A stretch of DNA of 64,000 nt from a virus (taxonomy: Duplodnaviria; Caudoviricetes): IMG/VR virus record IMGVR_UViG_3300017655_000001, positions 1-64,000 of that record; one strand, 5' to 3'. Made by a program: the position numbers and the translations under genes. The notes beneath the pieces were generated by a model. The model saw only the letters and a program-made list of their open reading frames with translations. It ran no database searches and was not told the origin of the DNA. Below, one piece after another: positions 3,166 to 55,853 of the stretch (within the stretch, counting starts at the first letter, position 1; each line of letters begins with the position of its first letter).

Positions 3166-3531
3166 CTATTTACTTTCTTCGACTTCTTGTCCAGCCGCTT
3201 TAAGATATTGGCGAACCATAAGATCCCTATTTCTTCCTGTAATCAGGAATGGAGGTTTCTTCACTTCACGTTTAAACGTATCCCAATCCATTTCATCAAG
3301 TTGTTCTTTAGTAAAGATTTCTTGGATGATCTGATATTGGAAACCTGGGGTATTCTCCATAATCTCGTCTGTCTCAAAATACATGAACGCTTGGTGAGGG
3401 AAACGCATGAAAGGGACTTTACCTTCCTGAAGGACAGCACCTTTGTTAGCGAGAGCAACTACGTTTTTCATGAAGTCAAAACCGAGACTATCTTTAGTGC
3501 CAGTTACGAGGACGATATATTTGTTAGCCAT
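3166..3531 (-). CDS. Hypothetical protein
   Basis: 121-aa ORF with an RBS and its own promoter. Confidence 0.75.
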   Translation of the reverse strand: MANKYIVLVTGTKDSLGFDFMKNVVALANKGAVLQEGKVPFMRFPHQAFMYFETDEIMENTPGFQYQIIQEIFTKEQLDEMDWDTFKREVKKPPFLITGRNRDLMVRQYLKAAGQEVEESK

Positions 3532-3670: not shown

Positions 3671-4513
3671 TTAAACAGGTTTCTCTTCCCAAAACAGGGA
3701 GTAAACGCCTGTAGCAGCACCAGAACCAAAGTTATGCAGTCTTAGATAATAAGTACCAGCACCAAGACCACGCTCTGATTGGGCACCACCACTAACAGTT
3801 TGTTGTTGTGCTGTAGCGTTAGCTGCTACAATTCTCGTGTTTTCTACAACAGTTCCGCCAGTAACACCTGAACCAAATACAACAGGAGCAGCATGTGTTG
3901 TAATCGTAATCACTGGGTTATAATATGGCTGCTTACGTTGAGCCATTCTATTCTTACCAATAATCGGTAACGCTGTATTGAATGTAGCTACTTCTGTAGC
4001 ACCTATAAGCGCTTGGAATCTAATGCTACCAGCGTCTACTGACAAACTCTGCTCAAACAATACAAAATCAATAGGAGAGACAAACTTAAATATTTGGACG
4101 TTTCCTGCTGGAATGTTAAATTCAAAGAAACTTCTAAACTCTCTCCCTTCAAATAAGCTTGTCTGTCCTTGGTCAACACGGAGCCGTCTAAATCCTTCAT
4201 CAGCAGAAGTCCAAACATCCCTTGGAAGATTTGTAACACTATAAGGAGACACAATCTCTGCTGTGTCTTGAATTACAAGCTTACCTGTAACACCCTTCAC
4301 CCAAACAATCGTATCTGATTCTTCGACATAGAAAGTTTGAGTAGTATAGATAGGAACACCACGAGCATCATCAGCAGGTTGTGTAGGAGAAACGATGATA
4401 GAGACAAGGCCACTTGTGTGGTTTGTAATTACAAAGCTTTTACTAACTGAAATTGAAGCTAATGTATTTAGATTTGAATATGATGTACTACTTGGTACAG
4501 TTACGATTTGCAC
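3671..4513 (-). CDS. Hypothetical protein, possibly virion-associated (beta-rich)
   Basis: 280-aa ORF, GTG start after AAGGGGG, T/S/V/G-rich composition. Confidence 0.65.
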   Translation of the reverse strand: MQIVTVPSSTSYSNLNTLASISVSKSFVITNHTSGLVSIIVSPTQPADDARGVPIYTTQTFYVEESDTIVWVKGVTGKLVIQDTAEIVSPYSVTNLPRDVWTSADEGFRRLRVDQGQTSLFEGREFRSFFEFNIPAGNVQIFKFVSPIDFVLFEQSLSVDAGSIRFQALIGATEVATFNTALPIIGKNRMAQRKQPYYNPVITITTHAAPVVFGSGVTGGTVVENTRIVAANATAQQQTVSGGAQSERGLGAGTYYLRLHNFGSGAATGVYSLFWEEKPV

Positions 4514-4733: not shown

Positions 4734-4770
4734 TGGTGCCGATAATCTGATTTGAACAGATAACCTATCG
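4734..4770 (-). pseudogene. 3' half of a tRNA (Thr-like), 5' half missing
   Basis: CGAT-AGGTT-ATCTG-TTCAAAT-CAGAT-TATCGGC-A-CCA: 3' anticodon strand, variable loop, perfect T-arm, acceptor strand and CCA. Starts 1 nt after the HNH stop. Confidence 0.8.
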
Positions 4771-4771
4771 A

Positions 4772-5476
4772 CTAATATGATTTACCTTCTTGGTAACGAA
4801 CTCTGCGATTATGTCTTCCGTTACCAATATTCTTACCCTTATATGTGTCGGTCTGAGAGTGACAGTTAGGACAGATTAGACACACATTATCTGGTGATGC
4901 ATTTTCACTATTACCATCAATGTGCTCAACCTCTAAAACTATGTCTTTTCCGTTCCAGTCAGTCAATCCACAAACTGAACACTTGTAACCATGGACTATA
5001 GTAAGGAAGTTCTTAAGAACCCTGTTAACAAAAGATTTACCATGCAAGTACCAATCTAAGAAGTTATCTTCTACTTTCTTTTCTGCGGCACATTTCTGCG
5101 AGCAATACTTACTTGTTGAATTTCTCAGAGGAAAGAATATTTTACCACAATTCAGGCACTCGCACTCTTGCTTTATTTTTCTAGACTTGGTTGTCTTATT
5201 ATTAACAGATACTGCACAACTTCTTGAGCAAAATTCGTTAATACGCTTTTCGTAAGAGATGACTGTCTGACAATGTCTGCACTTACGGGGATTCTCATAG
5301 TAAAGTTTTCTTGCAAAACTTGCGTTTAATTTATAAAGCCTAAGACCCCTATTCATACAAGCATTGTAGCTTGGTAGACCGGCATCTTTAAGGTCAGCTT
5401 TTGTAATAGGTAGCTGCTTTACTTTGTAAATTTCCCAAAGACGTTCCACAATTTCATCTAAAGTTATTTCGTACAT
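4772..5476 (-). CDS. HNH endonuclease (Zn-finger repeats + HNH)
   Basis: FCSRSC and YCSQKC repeats; CSVCG...LEVEHIDGNSENASPDNVCLICPNCHSQTDTY. Confidence 0.92.
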   Translation of the reverse strand: MYEITLDEIVERLWEIYKVKQLPITKADLKDAGLPSYNACMNRGLRLYKLNASFARKLYYENPRKCRHCQTVISYEKRINEFCSRSCAVSVNNKTTKSRKIKQECECLNCGKIFFPLRNSTSKYCSQKCAAEKKVEDNFLDWYLHGKSFVNRVLKNFLTIVHGYKCSVCGLTDWNGKDIVLEVEHIDGNSENASPDNVCLICPNCHSQTDTYKGKNIGNGRHNRRVRYQEGKSY

Positions 5477-5503
5477 TTGATATCCTAATATATCTTAATA
5501 AGA

Positions 5504-5553
5504 AACAGCTATCCGTGATTAGGCACGGCAGGGGAGCTACCCTTTTCGCTGTT
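5504..5553 (-). ncRNA. Three-way-junction RNA motif, copy 1 (between tRNA and HNH)
   Basis: AACAGC-GAAAA-GGG(TAGCT)CCC-CTG-CCGTG(CCTAAT)CACGG-ATA-GCTGTT. A homologous copy is at 6786-6838. Confidence 0.75.
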
Positions 5554-5555
5554 AT

Positions 5556-5630
5556 TGGAGGCAAAGCTGAGAATCAAACTCAGGTCACGGCGTTACAAAG
5601 GCCGGGTAATGATCACTATACGACAATGCC
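5556..5630 (-). tRNA. Atypical tRNA, anticodon TGT (Thr) in a non-Thr-like body
   Basis: Cloverleaf GGCATTG...CTTTGCC-T-CCA, anticodon loop TTTGTAA, T-stem CTGAG/CTCAG. Has two acceptor mismatches, a C31-C39 mismatch, no D-loop GG and T-loop TTTGATT. Confidence 0.65.
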
Positions 5631-5638
5631 GAAACTAG

Positions 5639-6028
5639 TTAATCTTCTTTCTTTGGAAGCATATGGAGCGAGAAACGAACAGGTTTCTCTGTAGCACCAA
5701 CAGAATTATCTTCTTCTGGTGTATCTTCTGTATTCTCTTCCAAAGATTTCTTAATTGTATTTCTACGCTGTTCTTCGTTGATAGCTGCTGATGTGGTTGA
5801 AACTACACGTTCCACAACCCACTTTGCAGAGCTTAATTGGTCCTTTGGGATATCTTCACCATTAATTGATTTCTCAATAATGGCAAGAGCAGGATCTTCA
5901 AGCTTTGAAAGCTTTGTTAGGAGTTTACGAAGTTCGCTCTTCTTGACCCTTGGTCCGCGAATTCCTTTTGAATTGCGATTTTCAGGATTACTTGTAAAAC
6001 CCTGAGTATTATTCTTAGGGGCTGCCAT
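5639..6028 (-). CDS. Putative terminase small subunit
   Basis: N-terminal GFTSNPENRNSKGIRGP resembles the TerS NP.GRP-type motif. Helical middle, acidic tail, 129 aa, same strand as and upstream of terL. Confidence 0.5.
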   Translation of the reverse strand: MAAPKNNTQGFTSNPENRNSKGIRGPRVKKSELRKLLTKLSKLEDPALAIIEKSINGEDIPKDQLSSAKWVVERVVSTTSAAINEEQRRNTIKKSLEENTEDTPEEDNSVGATEKPVRFSLHMLPKKED

Positions 6029-6066
6029 CGCAGATACCTCTTGTAATTATTCTAGACAGAAATCTT

Positions 6067-6255
6067 TCTGAAACCTACTAATCAAAAATAGGCTTTAGAA
6101 AGAAGCAGCTATCAACAGGAGAATGAATTGATAGCTGCACATAGCTCTACAACATGGAGGAGAAAGACATATTATAGAGAAGAAGCTTCACGTATGAAAG
6201 GAGAGTAAAACACGTGAAGCATACACATCGTTACTTGCTTTATTTCGCTGATGTG
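6067..6255. ncRNA. Array of five hairpins, three with AGGAGA (+) / UCUCCU (-) loops
   Basis: Stems GCAGCTATCAA/TTGATAGCTGC, CTCTACAACATG/CATATTATAGAG and GCTTCACGT/ACGTGAAGC with loops CAGGAGAATGAA, GAGGAGAAAGA and ATGAAAGGAGAGTAAAAC. Confidence 0.7.
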
Positions 6256-6261
6256 AATTAG

Positions 6262-6756
6262 TCAGTCAAAGAAGCCATCTCTTTCGAGATTATCAAACTC
6301 CCAATGACAGTTTGGACACAGGGGTATTACATTATCTTCACTATTAACATCTCGCAAAAGCTCGTGATCTTGGAAGTCAGATACTGCTCTGATGTGGGCA
6401 AGCTCTACGTGCTTATCGTATCCACACTTCCTACAACACTCTAAAGCTAAATGTTTTAGCCAAGATCTAGCAAAACTTCTAACGTGAGCATTAATCCAAG
6501 ATGGATGTTTACCCGCAACGGAGAGTTTTGTTCTGTACTCCCCTAAAGTTTTATCTCTATACTGATTTTCTTTATGTTCTAACCAATGTTCTTCGCAAAG
6601 TGTACTCCTATAATTTCGTACTATTTTATCACAACGAGAACAGACCTTTTTACACTTTCTCTTTGGATGCAATTTATTAGTATAATTTGCGGAACAACTT
6701 CTTGAACAAAACTTAGGATTTGTGGTTTCTGTACCACAGTTTAAACAATTATTAAT
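6262..6756 (-). CDS. HNH endonuclease; probable true start is ATT at 6756
   Basis: CRKCGY...VELAHI...DNVIPLCPNCHWEFD. The frame extends upstream through INNCLNCGTETTNPKFCSRSC, with a GGAG RBS 8 nt before the ATT. Confidence 0.85.
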   Translation of the reverse strand: MNNCLNCGTETTNPKFCSRSCSANYTNKLHPKRKCKKVCSRCDKIVRNYRSTLCEEHWLEHKENQYRDKTLGEYRTKLSVAGKHPSWINAHVRSFARSWLKHLALECCRKCGYDKHVELAHIRAVSDFQDHELLRDVNSEDNVIPLCPNCHWEFDNLERDGFFD

Positions 6757-6785
6757 TTTAAAATCTCCGATCAGACGGTATTGGT

Positions 6786-6838
6786 GAAAGCTAGTTAGTA
6801 GATCGGTACTAACAGGAGTTGCAACTCTTTTCGCTTTC
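6786..6838 (-). ncRNA. Three-way-junction RNA motif, copy 2
   Basis: GAAAGC-GAAAA-GAG(TTGCAA)CTC-CTG-TTAGTA(CCGATC)TACTAA-CTA-GCTTTC. Compensatory changes relative to copy 1. Confidence 0.75.
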
Positions 6839-6860
6839 TTGTATCAGCAATTGCTGAATG

Positions 6861-6943
6861 TGGCACAGCAGGTGCGGTTTGAACGCACATTTTCAGTTCC
6901 AATTACCCGTAGCAATTTAGAAGACTGCTGGGACTACTGCTGC
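6861..6943 (-). ncRNA. D-armless tRNA-like RNA, anticodon-like TCT, long variable region
   Basis: Acceptor GCAGCAG/CTGCTGT-G-CCA, 6-nt linker in place of the D-arm, AGCAGT(CTTCTAA)ATTGCT, T-arm GTGCG(TTCAAAC)CGCAC. Confidence 0.7.
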
Positions 6944-27083: not shown

Positions 27084-28238
27084 ATGGAAGAGTGGAAAGT
27101 AGTACCAGAGTATTCTAAATACGAGGCATCAACAACAGGTGTTATTAGAGACTCACAAACAAAAGAGTTGCGTCCATTAACTTGGAATAATAATTTCCTG
27201 TGTACGAATATGCGTAGAGATGATGGTGTCAAGGTTTTGTGTAAAGTTCACAGGATTGTAGCTCTGACTTTCTTAGATAATCCTGAGCAGGCTCATAACG
27301 TAGTGCACATCAATGAGGATAGGTCTGACAACTCAGTAGGTAATCTGAAATGGAAACCAAAACTTGTTAAAGAGGTTGTTTCTAAAGAGATGCCAACACT
27401 AACCTTCCTAGGTAAGACATACACTTATGTGGAGTTTTGTGAACAGGCTAAGTGTGAAATATCTATGCTCAAACACAGGCTCAACAAGGCTGGTTGGAGT
27501 GTAAGAGAGTGTTTTACAGGTATTAAAGAGTTCACTGGAGATGGTTATTCCGGTGAGGGTATGTGGTTTACAAACAAGAAAGAGTATCAAGCTTGGATGT
27601 GGTTAAAAGAGCTTGAGAAAAGAGAACTAAAACGTAAGCAAAAGGAAGACGACAAACAACAACGAATTAAAGAACGTGCTGAGTATAAGAAGTATGGAGT
27701 AGGGGTATTTGAGAACTTTCCTGTGAAGGGGATCGTTGATCGTATTACTACGAAAGCTTATAGAGCCTGGGATGCAATGTTAGGAAGATGCTATGCACCT
27801 AATAAGAAAAGCTACCAATCTTATGGTGCAAAAGGTGTTTACGTTTGCGACTCTTGGTTATATTTTCAGGAATATGTTAAATGGTATGACTCACAGTACA
27901 AAGAAGATGATTGGCATGTAGACAAGGACATCTTGGTAAAGGGTAATAAAATCTATTCTCCAGAGACTTGTGTAATGGTGCCTCCCGAAGTGAATACATT
28001 CTTTGCAAGTTTAACTAGAGATGGCGAGACAGTTAAGGGTTTTATTCAGAATGGTCCGGGATTCACATCAGGGGTGTACATTGAAGGAGAGAAGATTCAG
28101 AAGTATTTTAGAAGTGAGCAAGAAGCCTCTGAATACTATTGGACTAATAAACGTCAAGCAGCTTACAATCTAACCCTTAAATACCCTAATATTGACCAAA
28201 GGGTTAAAGACAAACTGCTTAGACTGGAAATATCCTAA
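27084..28238 (+). CDS. Homing endonuclease (NUMOD4/HNH plus a second nuclease-like module)
   Basis: EEWKVVPEYSKYEAS.TG, VHRIVA.TF, VVHINEDRSDNSV.NLKW; then WDAMLGRCY, VCDSWLYFQ and WHVDKDILV...YSPETCVMVP. Confidence 0.88.
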   Translation: MEEWKVVPEYSKYEASTTGVIRDSQTKELRPLTWNNNFLCTNMRRDDGVKVLCKVHRIVALTFLDNPEQAHNVVHINEDRSDNSVGNLKWKPKLVKEVVSKEMPTLTFLGKTYTYVEFCEQAKCEISMLKHRLNKAGWSVRECFTGIKEFTGDGYSGEGMWFTNKKEYQAWMWLKELEKRELKRKQKEDDKQQRIKERAEYKKYGVGVFENFPVKGIVDRITTKAYRAWDAMLGRCYAPNKKSYQSYGAKGVYVCDSWLYFQEYVKWYDSQYKEDDWHVDKDILVKGNKIYSPETCVMVPPEVNTFFASLTRDGETVKGFIQNGPGFTSGVYIEGEKIQKYFRSEQEASEYYWTNKRQAAYNLTLKYPNIDQRVKDKLLRLEIS

Positions 28239-45218: not shown

Positions 45219-45764
45219 ATGGTCGATTGGCGTGAAAGAGTCGAGTATTCAGAGGATAGTCCTTCTGGATTAATTTGGAAAACGAGTGGCCGTAATAGCA
45301 AAGTAGGAACTTCCGTAGGATACATCAGGACATCGAAAAGGGGAGTCCAAAGATGGCAAACCATGATCGGCAGCAAATCATACTTGTGCCATAGACTTGT
45401 ATGGGAACTTTTCCATGGCCCTATTGAAGATGGTCTTACGATTGATCATTTTGATAGAAATCCTTTAAATAATAGGATTGAGAATCTAAGATGCGTTCCA
45501 AATGAAATCAATGTAAGGAATAAAGGGGCCTATAGAAATTCAAAATCTGGAATAACAGGCATATGCTTTTGGACGAGCAGGAATGGGGATGAATACGTTA
45601 CTGCTCAGTGGCAGGATTTAGAAGGGAATAGAAAAGGTAAAAGGTTTCAAATAAAGAAACATGGAAAAGAAGAGGCAATCCGATTAGCTATTGAATATCG
45701 GAATGAGCAAATTAGGTTGCTGAATTTAGAGGGTGCCGGATATACTGAAGCCCACGGAACATAA
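45219..45764 (+). CDS. HNH homing endonuclease
   Basis: YLCHRLVWELFHG, TIDHFDRNPLNNRIENLR, N and SGITGI. Confidence 0.9.
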   Translation: MVDWRERVEYSEDSPSGLIWKTSGRNSKVGTSVGYIRTSKRGVQRWQTMIGSKSYLCHRLVWELFHGPIEDGLTIDHFDRNPLNNRIENLRCVPNEINVRNKGAYRNSKSGITGICFWTSRNGDEYVTAQWQDLEGNRKGKRFQIKKHGKEEAIRLAIEYRNEQIRLLNLEGAGYTEAHGT

Positions 45765-54747: not shown

Positions 54748-55242
54748 GTGAACAATCTGCAAGACTTCTACAATCAAATTATCGACTGGAATAAAAAGGC
54801 TGGTGTGAAAGACCACGAATTTGGTACATTAGACTGGGAACGTGCTGTTGAGCTTCAATCGAAGCTGCTTGTAGAAGAAGCAAATGAAACAATTTCTGCA
54901 ATCACTCATGGACATATGATTGAATTACTTGACGGTGCAGTAGACACCTTCGTAATTCTTTCTAAACTGTTTGATATGCTAGAGAAAGCTGGATTTGATG
55001 TTGAAGGAGCAATTCAGCAAATCATTGACAACAATCAAAAGAAAGTATTTAACTCTTTCTATGAGGCTTGTGATGCTAAGGAGAAGCTTGAAGCTCGTGA
55101 TGATAAAGAGTATTATGTAGAAACTGCAACACTAAACGGTCTAGCTTTCTATACGGTACGTCGAGAAGATGGTAAGATTGCAAAGCCTGTTGATTTTGTT
55201 GCTGTTGAATTGAATGAGTTTGTACCAAAGGAGAGTTATTAA
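54748..55242 (+). CDS. MazG-like NTP pyrophosphohydrolase
   Basis: LLVEEANET...ELLDGAVDT...N..K...RREDGKIAKP. Confidence 0.75.
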   Translation: MNNLQDFYNQIIDWNKKAGVKDHEFGTLDWERAVELQSKLLVEEANETISAITHGHMIELLDGAVDTFVILSKLFDMLEKAGFDVEGAIQQIIDNNQKKVFNSFYEACDAKEKLEARDDKEYYVETATLNGLAFYTVRREDGKIAKPVDFVAVELNEFVPKESY

Positions 55243-55853
55243 TGAGCCAGATTAAAGTAGAAGTGCTAGATTCGATGGGAAATGACCTTGCTGTTGTTCA
55301 AGCAGCACTTTTGTCTAAGGTTTCTCGTAGGTGTTTGGAGTCTTTAAGTCGGGGATACTACGTCACCGATGAAGGTGAAGTATTCGGCCCAAAGGGTAAG
55401 CTTTCGCTTAACTCCAAGAATCAAAACGGTTATCCTATGTATTCAACTAATTGGGAGGGGGAAGTTTTTGGTGTGCCTATGCACAAGTTGGCAGCAGTGT
55501 GTTTTTATGGAGCCAAAGTTTTTGAAGAAGGTGTCCATGTTCGTCACCTAGACGGAGATAAGTTTAATCTAAGTAAAACTAACATCGTTCTTGGTACAGC
55601 ATCTGAAAATGAACTCGATAAACCTGAAGAGCAACGTTCAGCTACAGCTAAAATTGCAAGAGCTGCTCAAGGGTTCACACCAACCAACGCTAAGCTTACA
55701 CCAGAACAAGTATTAGAGGTAAGAGACTTTTATAAAAGTCTCGACGGTAAAAAGGCTGGGAACGGAGTAGTAAAAGCTTTATGTGAGAAGTTGGGTGTTT
55801 CTCGAACAGTACTGTGTAACATTAAGAATGGGGAGTATTATACAAATGTCTAA
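55242..55853 (+). CDS. HNH endonuclease fused behind a ThyX-like N-terminal peptide
   Basis: MHKLAA...HVRHLDGDKFNLSKTNIVLGT.SEN..D. The first 22 aa resemble the ThyX start. Confidence 0.88.
   Translation: MSQIKVEVLDSMGNDLAVVQAALLSKVSRRCLESLSRGYYVTDEGEVFGPKGKLSLNSKNQNGYPMYSTNWEGEVFGVPMHKLAAVCFYGAKVFEEGVHVRHLDGDKFNLSKTNIVLGTASENELDKPEEQRSATAKIARAAQGFTPTNAKLTPEQVLEVRDFYKSLDGKKAGNGVVKALCEKLGVSRTVLCNIKNGEYYTNV

Follow-up and report, generated by a model that had tools for sequence, protein, structure and literature searches.

A three-way-junction RNA leader whose loop pairs with the Shine-Dalgarno sequence precedes homing endonuclease genes of phages

Homing endonucleases need to be expressed enough to spread and too little to harm the phage that carries them. 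Such expression control is so far known case by case, from gene-specific hairpins of T4-like phages: RNA structures that sequester the ribosome-binding site limit the expression of I-TevI and of Aeh1 mobE, and the same kind of sequestration has been predicted for I-TevII and I-TevIII and implicated for T4 segB (PMC3014915). These T-even structures are simple local hairpins, each specific to its gene, and some contain a late promoter that yields an open transcript. In SAM-II, preQ1-II and similar riboswitches, a short pseudoknot has the ribosome-binding site as its 3′ strand. Here we describe an RNA leader that occurs twice in a 64,000-nucleotide (nt) stretch of virus DNA (positions 1 to 64,000 of the IMG/VR record IMGVR_UViG_3300017655_000001; Duplodnaviria, Caudoviricetes), hereafter called the window, each time just upstream of a gene for an HNH endonuclease. 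Like the T-even structures, the leader would be a cis-acting structure of the messenger RNA (mRNA) that hides the Shine-Dalgarno sequence or start codon, so that read-through transcripts yield little protein. Unlike those hairpins, it holds the Shine-Dalgarno sequence in a covarying pseudoknot helix attached to a conserved three-way junction with fixed junction bases, and it is common to more than 100 cassettes of unrelated nuclease families. With SAM-II and preQ1-II it shares a short pseudoknot in which the ribosome-binding site provides the 3′ strand, whereas about 50 nt folded as a three-way junction make up its aptamer-like part and its genes imply no ligand. The leader appears to represent a new, well-supported RNA family of a known functional kind, namely ribosome-site sequestration in homing-endonuclease mRNAs.

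Both copies lie on the minus strand, as does every gene in the region around them (Table 1), and they have the positions and the frame given in the original prediction, which had been made from the DNA letters of the window. Read 5′ to 3′, each is organized as P1-GAAAA-P2-CUG-P3-(C/A)UA-P1′, in which P1 comprises six pairs, P2 is short and G/C-rich and P3 carries a loop of six bases. As determined with RNAfold, the minimum free energy (MFE) structure of each copy alone is the three-way junction (-16.3 kcal/mol, z -2.1 for copy 1; -12.8 kcal/mol, z -2.7 for copy 2). The covariance model R1, which was built from relatives, matches both copies over its full length with 61.9 and 61.0 bits, respectively. 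The 22-23-nt frame that they share occurs exactly twice in the virus record, which is 87,438 base pairs (bp) long and has direct terminal repeats. In an R1 scan of the window and the whole genome, the next best score after the two copies was 11 bits; no other endonuclease gene of this genome thus carries the leader, in accordance with what had been predicted.

Copy 1 lies 27 nt upstream of the start codon of its nuclease gene (ATG 5476). In between, and 7 nt 5′ of this ATG, the sequence AUUAGG is complementary to the entire P3 loop CCUAAU, and its last bases are part of the Shine-Dalgarno sequence AGGA (5483-5486). The same arrangement is seen in copy 2, in which the P3 loop CCGAUC is complementary to GAUCGG, overlapping the Shine-Dalgarno sequence GGAGA (6764-6768). 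This loop-to-Shine-Dalgarno pseudoknot was missed by the original prediction, and masking of the ribosome site lay outside the functions that it had considered (a processing signal, an autoregulatory operator or an RNA partner of the nuclease).

The pseudoknot pairing recurs throughout the family. Scanning viral contigs for the shared frame returned 26 stretches, compared with a handful estimated for chance, and in all 26 the six P3 loop bases are the reverse complement of six bases that reach into the Shine-Dalgarno sequence of the next open reading frame (ORF). Scans of the viral contigs in which one segment was freed at a time gave 59 and 101 stretches, which overlap with each other and with the first 26; those with the interior of P2 free gave 62 and 54, and a scan of metagenome contigs gave 89. 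By pattern scans and the covariance model, more than 100 further leader copies were found in viral and metagenome contigs. The model R1 contains P1, P2 and P3 only, the pseudoknot being left out, and accounts for 104 copies, distributed over 100 loci. When 50 diverse copies were aligned with MAFFT, 89.6% of the cells paired and covariation amounted to 0.547, compared with at most 0.107 for slid partners; none of 500 shuffles reached the observed value. The R1-fitted alignment with 80 distinct rows gave a similar picture (91.3% of the cells pair; covariation 0.534 versus at most 0.103 for slid partners), and all six pseudoknot pairs change on both sides. The expectation of a covarying three-way-junction RNA tied to homing endonuclease genes is borne out.

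P2 covaries as well when its sequence is freed, with the combinations GGG/CCC, GGU/ACC, GAG/CUC, GAAC/GUUC, GAUC/GAUC and GGC/GCC. In 94 distinct copies read with a strict parser, the pairing begins 3-17 nt 3′ of P1′, covers the P3 loop to within 1 nt (89 of the 94) and ends mostly 6-8 nt 5′ of the start codon, that is, on the Shine-Dalgarno sequence. The P3 loop is 6-7 nt long across the family; its 5′ bases, CC or CU, have the first GG or AG in the Shine-Dalgarno sequence as partners, and the other four vary from copy to copy, their partner bases changing along with them. Where the search pattern did not fix them, the junction strands read GAAAA, GAAGA or GAACG (once AAAAA) in J1/2, mostly CUG and rarely CCG, CGG, CUU or UUG in J2/3, and CUA or AUA in J3/1, which gives the consensus strands GAA(R)(R), CUG and (C/A)UA.

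Nearly every copy has the pairing located over its ribosome-binding site, with compensatory changes preserving it, and we therefore interpret the leader as a throttle that acts on translation initiation. It probably acts as a portable cis-acting element in which the P3-loop pseudoknot masks the nuclease gene's ribosome-binding site. In the mechanism that we propose, a mobile homing-endonuclease cassette would carry each copy as its 5′ leader. Folding would give a compact three-way junction that is closed by P1 and presents the 6-7-nt loop on P3; the entire loop would pair with the 6-7 nt ending in the first two purines of the Shine-Dalgarno sequence. The ribosome-binding site would be hidden in this pseudoknot, few 30S subunits would load, and the selfish nuclease would be kept low, whatever the strength of operon transcription. 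P1 would insulate the fold from the adjoining sequence, and the four bases of the loop that vary could change together with the bases 5′ of the Shine-Dalgarno sequence. Owing to the closure by P1 and the free choice of loop bases, the module would work in any insertion site and could be shared among unrelated nucleases. We infer that the pairing lowers translation and that it does so without a ligand.

Several observations weigh against this throttle. The pseudoknot consists of only 6-7 bp, which as an isolated duplex amount to about -5.5 kcal/mol, and it leaves no unpaired P3 loop bases, which may cause strain. Since the ribosome site is about half unpaired in an ensemble of nested structures only, the pseudoknot would have to bring about all of the repression. 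In the case of the two window copies, the 5′ end of the mRNA would moreover depend on processing of the upstream transfer RNA (tRNA). Finally, the near-invariant GAA and UA and the mostly conserved CUG exceed the needs of simple masking, which hints at a ligand, a factor or a tertiary fold. Speculatively, the junction bases might build a tertiary clamp, for instance by docking of the A-rich J1/2 on the pseudoknot.

The conserved junction would also be explained if the leader were a true switch, with the pseudoknot being opened or stabilized when the junction is bound by a small molecule, a metal, or a protein of host or phage origin. The nuclease would then be made only under a certain condition, such as late infection, so that a switch would refine the throttle rather than exclude it. 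The junction bases are nearly fixed, whereas P1, P3 and the pseudoknot vary freely, and the pseudoknot is marginally stable, as are the ligand-stabilized Shine-Dalgarno pseudoknots of SAM-II and preQ1-II. However, the gene context, which consists of nucleases only, suggests no ligand, and there is neither a conserved alternative pairing nor a decoy site. In addition, the P2 loops vary and include a UUCG tetraloop, and a binding pocket would have to be very small. On balance a switch appears rather unlikely; if the leader were a sensor, it would constitute a new riboswitch-like class, a shared and horizontally exchanged on/off control for unrelated selfish nucleases.

Two further structural candidates were discarded. 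A 'decoy' or 'parking' site for the P3 loop did no better than shuffled controls (4.36 upstream matches versus 4.17 in shuffles, none in the spacer); the spacer has no conserved sequence and no conserved alternative pairing, and no embedded promoter was recognized in the leader. The other candidate was a kissing-loop dimer via a self-complementary P2 loop. Palindromes of 4-6 nt (AGCU, UGCA, GGCC, AAUU) are present in many P2 loops; given P2 loops without a palindrome (GACG, UUCG, UCGCU, GUCU, UCAUU), this is not a feature of the family.

The leader precedes homing endonucleases of many unrelated families, including several HNH clades, GIY-YIG and T5orf172 proteins. Among 38 representative downstream ORFs that were scanned, about 35 match endonuclease PHROGs (phrog_1035, 3322, 3118, 1271, 10822, 99, 59, 655, 6254, 8446, 15471, 681 and others). 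GIY-YIG homing endonucleases follow the leader in two cases (contigs L060 and L048) and a T5orf172 protein in contig L057, while the downstream protein of L063 contains a homing-endonuclease-associated repeat and that of Escherichia phage EP_H11 has a weak GIY-YIG-like end only. The two HNH proteins of the window are 31% identical and both contain the FCSRSC motif that the original prediction had pointed out. The idea that this motif defines the protein partner of the RNA has to be abandoned: the downstream proteins are not one family, and the FCSRSC motif is therefore incidental.

These data also bear on the suggestion that the nuclease itself binds the leader as its operator or RNA partner, in autoregulation or in a guide-like role. 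Its position just 5′ of the nuclease gene would suit such a function, and I-TevI does autorepress, at the DNA level (PMC3014915). Nevertheless, the same RNA stands before proteins with unrelated folds and DNA-binding domains (HNH proteins of phrog_1035, 1271, 99, 59 and 655; GIY-YIG; T5orf172), and its conserved parts are unchanged across these protein families, which makes recognition by the nuclease exceedingly unlikely.

Three leaders are orphans. The copy in L021 (7721-7810, minus strand) is followed by an ORF of six codons and that in L050 (2041-2137, minus strand) directly by a tRNA-Leu gene; in L030 (2866-2952, plus strand) the pairing has decayed and there is no gene. These copies look like scars of nuclease gene loss.

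In two comparisons of occupied with empty sites, the leader is located precisely at the 5′ edge of the inserted cassette. Phage EP_H11 has a 1,052-bp segment in place of 183 bp in its relative IME392; the EP_H11-specific segment starts 5 nt 5′ of P1 and contains the leader and one ORF. The second comparison concerns the largest leader clade, which is located directly after a conserved promoter-like element and 5′ of a capsid gene. Via the neighbouring capsid protein (87-100% identical) 80 such loci were fetched, 61 of them with enough flank. Between the upstream gene and the capsid gene, 42 of the 61 loci have a gap of 221-367 nt, and none of these contains the leader; the remaining 19 have 700-840 nt there, and in each of them the leader is present with an HNH gene behind it. 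One occupied allele compared with one empty allele showed 98% identity through the conserved element TTGACA-16-TGnTATAAC, with divergence setting in at base 1 of P1. About 685 nt of cassette, inserted just 3′ of the second hexamer, stand in place of about 160 nt of the native 5′ untranslated region (UTR) of the capsid gene.

By eye, TTGACA-16-TGnTATAAC can be read as a putative promoter. A stricter scan with the sigma-70 consensus did not call it, because its second hexamer ends in C. Should it be a promoter, the leader would form the very 5′ end of the capsid-operon mRNA, and the nuclease gene would ride on what is likely one of the strongest transcripts of the phage, where a translational throttle is needed. 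Elements of the form TTGACA-15/16-TGnTATAAC (or TATATC) are present in a large group of related uncultured podovirus-like contigs, at about 1705-1740 in L292 and in the same relative place in L301, L364, L328 and L117. Translational coupling to an upstream stop codon was also considered and rejected, as the TAA-containing string is part of the promoter-like element and is found in empty alleles too.

One compact RNA module is common to cassettes that encode unrelated nucleases and marks their 5′ edge; in that sense, no other part of these mobile elements is conserved as well as the leader. It can serve in annotation as a marker for free-standing nuclease cassettes and their boundaries, and it offers Rfam a well-supported family to add. 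For synthetic biology, it would provide a small, insulated and address-programmable translation throttle. Escherichia phage EP_H11 and its cassette-free relative IME392 form a cultured test system.

The original prediction had further envisaged a mobile cassette of tRNA-like RNA, leader and HNH gene. For copy 1 this view is supported. The sole nucleotide-level homology between the window and contig L017 spans 4829-5631 and thus comprises an atypical tRNA-Thr(UGU) gene, the leader and the HNH endonuclease 1 gene (HNH1) minus its last 57 nt or so, for which similarity is at the protein level only (71% identity). In L017, the block is flanked by the 5′ half of a canonical tRNA gene on one side and a decayed 3′ remnant on the other (about 4410-4450 and 3490-3530, minus strand). 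Judging from this layout and from the clean tRNA 3′ half that follows the HNH1 stop in the window, the copy 1 cassette seems to have entered and split a tRNA gene, carrying its own variant tRNA-Thr. As a general rule the cassette fails, since only about a tenth of the copies follow a tRNA (CCA within 9 nt upstream in 9 of 89 distinct copies). The link is recurrent and lies outside the definition of the motif: tRNAs called by ARAGORN end 1-6 nt 5′ of P1 in L060 (twice), L061, L070, L109 and L115. An association of this kind is what one would expect of nucleases residing in phage tRNA clusters; the known case is T4 segB (PMC3014915), which shares this location with the two window genes. Leader-bearing phage contigs also encode permuted genes for transfer-messenger RNA in or near tRNA clusters (L115 250-570, L063 8181-8481, L109 11289-11680).

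The short distance to these tRNAs could mean that the leader is an element of RNA processing or stability, its 5′ end marking the cut from the upstream tRNA or blocking 5′-end-dependent decay, with the pairing on the ribosome site being secondary. P1 follows CCA after 1-6 nt in the contigs just named and after 2 nt in copy 1 of the window, and in the capsid-locus clade it begins about where a transcript from the promoter-like element would. On the other hand, many copies have no preceding tRNA and do not coincide with a predicted transcript start, including that of EP_H11, which lies 40 nt 3′ of the upstream gene. Processing would also leave the covariation of the P3 loop with the Shine-Dalgarno bases unexplained in nearly every copy, and we regard it as improbable.

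With respect to known RNA families, Rfam 15 returned tRNAs only, whether searched at the gathering cut-off or with E up to 10 (96-nt search space). There was no match to hammerhead, twister, twister-sister, pistol or hatchet ribozymes (E up to 10), nor to any riboswitch, HEARO, EGFOA or RAGATH model, which agrees with the earlier statement that the motif could not be assigned to a named family; full-text literature searches did not retrieve a description of it either. The int-alpA RNA (RF02996, cut-off 35.8 bits) gave no match with E up to 10, be it in the window region, the 96-nt search space or the whole genome, none in 15 loci with relatives (E up to 10) or in 10 more (gathering cut-off), and none in five further leader-bearing genomes (E up to 1). 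Given this absence of a model match, the leader is provisionally set apart from int-alpA as a putative new family, although the two may be remote branches of one design; it also differs from int-alpA in having no decoy site.

A conserved junction together with a hairpin-loop pseudoknot recalls small self-cleaving ribozymes of phage contexts, and the pistol ribozyme also has a 6-nt loop pseudoknot. No Rfam ribozyme family matched, however, and the strand order GAAAA, CUG, CUA is, by eye, at odds with a hammerhead core. Alternatively, the leader might enhance translation instead of repressing it, as RNA structure improves initiation at T4 genes 25 and 38 (PMC3014915). The pairing occupies the first Shine-Dalgarno bases, whereas an enhancer would require the opposite. 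A role as ribozyme or enhancer is accordingly very unlikely, and masking of the ribosome-binding site is the function that we favour.

A BLAST search of 50,697 GenBank phage records detected the leader only in EP_H11, the one cultured phage in which it was found, and in a single uncultured podovirus. From 1 to 6 copies are present in each of five other phage genomes, of which three are estimated to be complete. In 596 gigabases of cellular genomes, a specific pattern gave 33 hits, an estimated no more than chance; one of the 33 was positive with R1, on a 4-kilobase contig of a metagenome-assembled genome, and on this count a prophage or cellular distribution was rejected. Given its near-absence from cellular genomes, the leader is one of phages, mostly uncultured.

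Table 1. Leader copies, their structural segments and neighbouring features in the window
Feature	Position	Strand	Basis or remark
Leader copy 1, three-way-junction core	5504..5553 (read 5553->5504)	minus	sequence, RNAfold MFE, covariance model
Copy 1 P1	5548-5553 paired with 5504-5509	minus	
Copy 1 J1/2 GAAAA	5543-5547	minus	
Copy 1 P2 GGGUAGCUCCC	5532-5542	minus	
Copy 1 J2/3 CUG	5529-5531	minus	
Copy 1 P3	5513-5528, loop CCUAAU 5518-5523	minus	
Copy 1 J3/1 AUA	5510-5512	minus	
Copy 1 pseudoknot 3′ strand AUUAGG	5484-5489	minus	sequence and family-wide covariation
Leader copy 2, three-way-junction core	6786..6838 (read 6838->6786)	minus	sequence, RNAfold, covariance model
Copy 2 P1	6833-6838 paired with 6786-6791	minus	
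Copy 2 J1/2 GAAAA	6828-6832	minus	
Copy 2 P2 GAGUUGCAACUC	6816-6827	minus	
Copy 2 J2/3 CUG	6813-6815	minus	
Copy 2 P3	6795-6812, loop CCGAUC 6801-6806	minus	
Copy 2 J3/1 CUA	6792-6794	minus	
Copy 2 pseudoknot 3′ strand GAUCGG	6767-6772	minus	sequence and covariation
HNH endonuclease 1 (HNH1)	4772..5476	minus	234 amino acids; phrog_1271/14736/10822; FCSRSC residues 82-87
HNH endonuclease 2 (HNH2)	6262..6756	minus	about 164 amino acids; Pfam HNH_2, phrog_1271; FCSRSC near N-terminus
Atypical tRNA-Thr(UGU)-like gene, encoded CCA	5556..5630	minus	Rfam tRNA 40 bits (cut-off 29)
tRNA 3′ half (T arm, acceptor 3′ strand, CCA)	4734..4771	minus	sequence; 1 nt after HNH1 stop
Perfect 14-nt palindrome (hairpin), between tRNA-like element and leader copy 2	6844..6857	minus	sequence
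Non-canonical tRNA-like element	6861..6943	minus	sequence; 22 nt 5′ of copy 2

The start of the HNH2 gene deserves comment. Its distance from copy 2 is 29 nt only if the in-frame ATT at 6754-6756, 7 nt 3′ of GGAGA, is the start codon, and this ATT is the probable start, as ATG, GTG and TTG are all missing there. Either it is a rare weak start codon or the gene has recently been damaged.

The remaining endonuclease genes of the virus lack a leader. Within the window these are three HNH_3 genes (45219-45764, 55242-55853 and 27084-28238, all on the plus strand), and outside it a GIY-YIG gene (genome positions 78192-78440, minus strand). The HNH_3 genes at 45219-45764 and 55242-55853 abut or overlap the preceding ORF, which leaves no room for a leader, and translational coupling may replace it; that at 27084-28238 follows a 62-nt gap.

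Each leader copy had been described as lying 3′ of a CCA-ending tRNA-like RNA. This is well founded for copy 1, whose neighbour is recognized by the Rfam tRNA model, and less so for copy 2, whose neighbour has no Rfam match. The tRNA-Thr(UGU)-like gene has two U-U mismatches in its acceptor stem and is called by ARAGORN at a relaxed threshold only; its CCA is the one that precedes P1 of copy 1. The tRNA 3′ half downstream of HNH1 is, judged by its sequence, probably the scar of the tRNA gene that the cassette entered; the 5′ half upstream of the L017 cassette matches it.

The element upstream of copy 2 combines a 7-bp acceptor stem, a T arm with the loop UUCAAAC, a discriminator G and CCA with a 6-bp stem whose loop, CUUCUAA, is anticodon-like (UCU). 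It has no normal D arm, and a D-loop-like AAUUGGA is placed 3′ of the CUUCUAA stem and not 5′ of it. ARAGORN did not accept this element and gave inconsistent models for it, and a pattern specific for it had zero matches in viral contigs, relatives being found only in PA11-like Pseudomonas phages. A counterpart is located in L001 (2501-2583, minus strand). The element of the PA11-like phages, to which that of the window is about 84% identical with compensatory changes in three stems, likewise adjoins a homing endonuclease; the ORF annotated for this enzyme ends inside a loop of the tRNA-like element.

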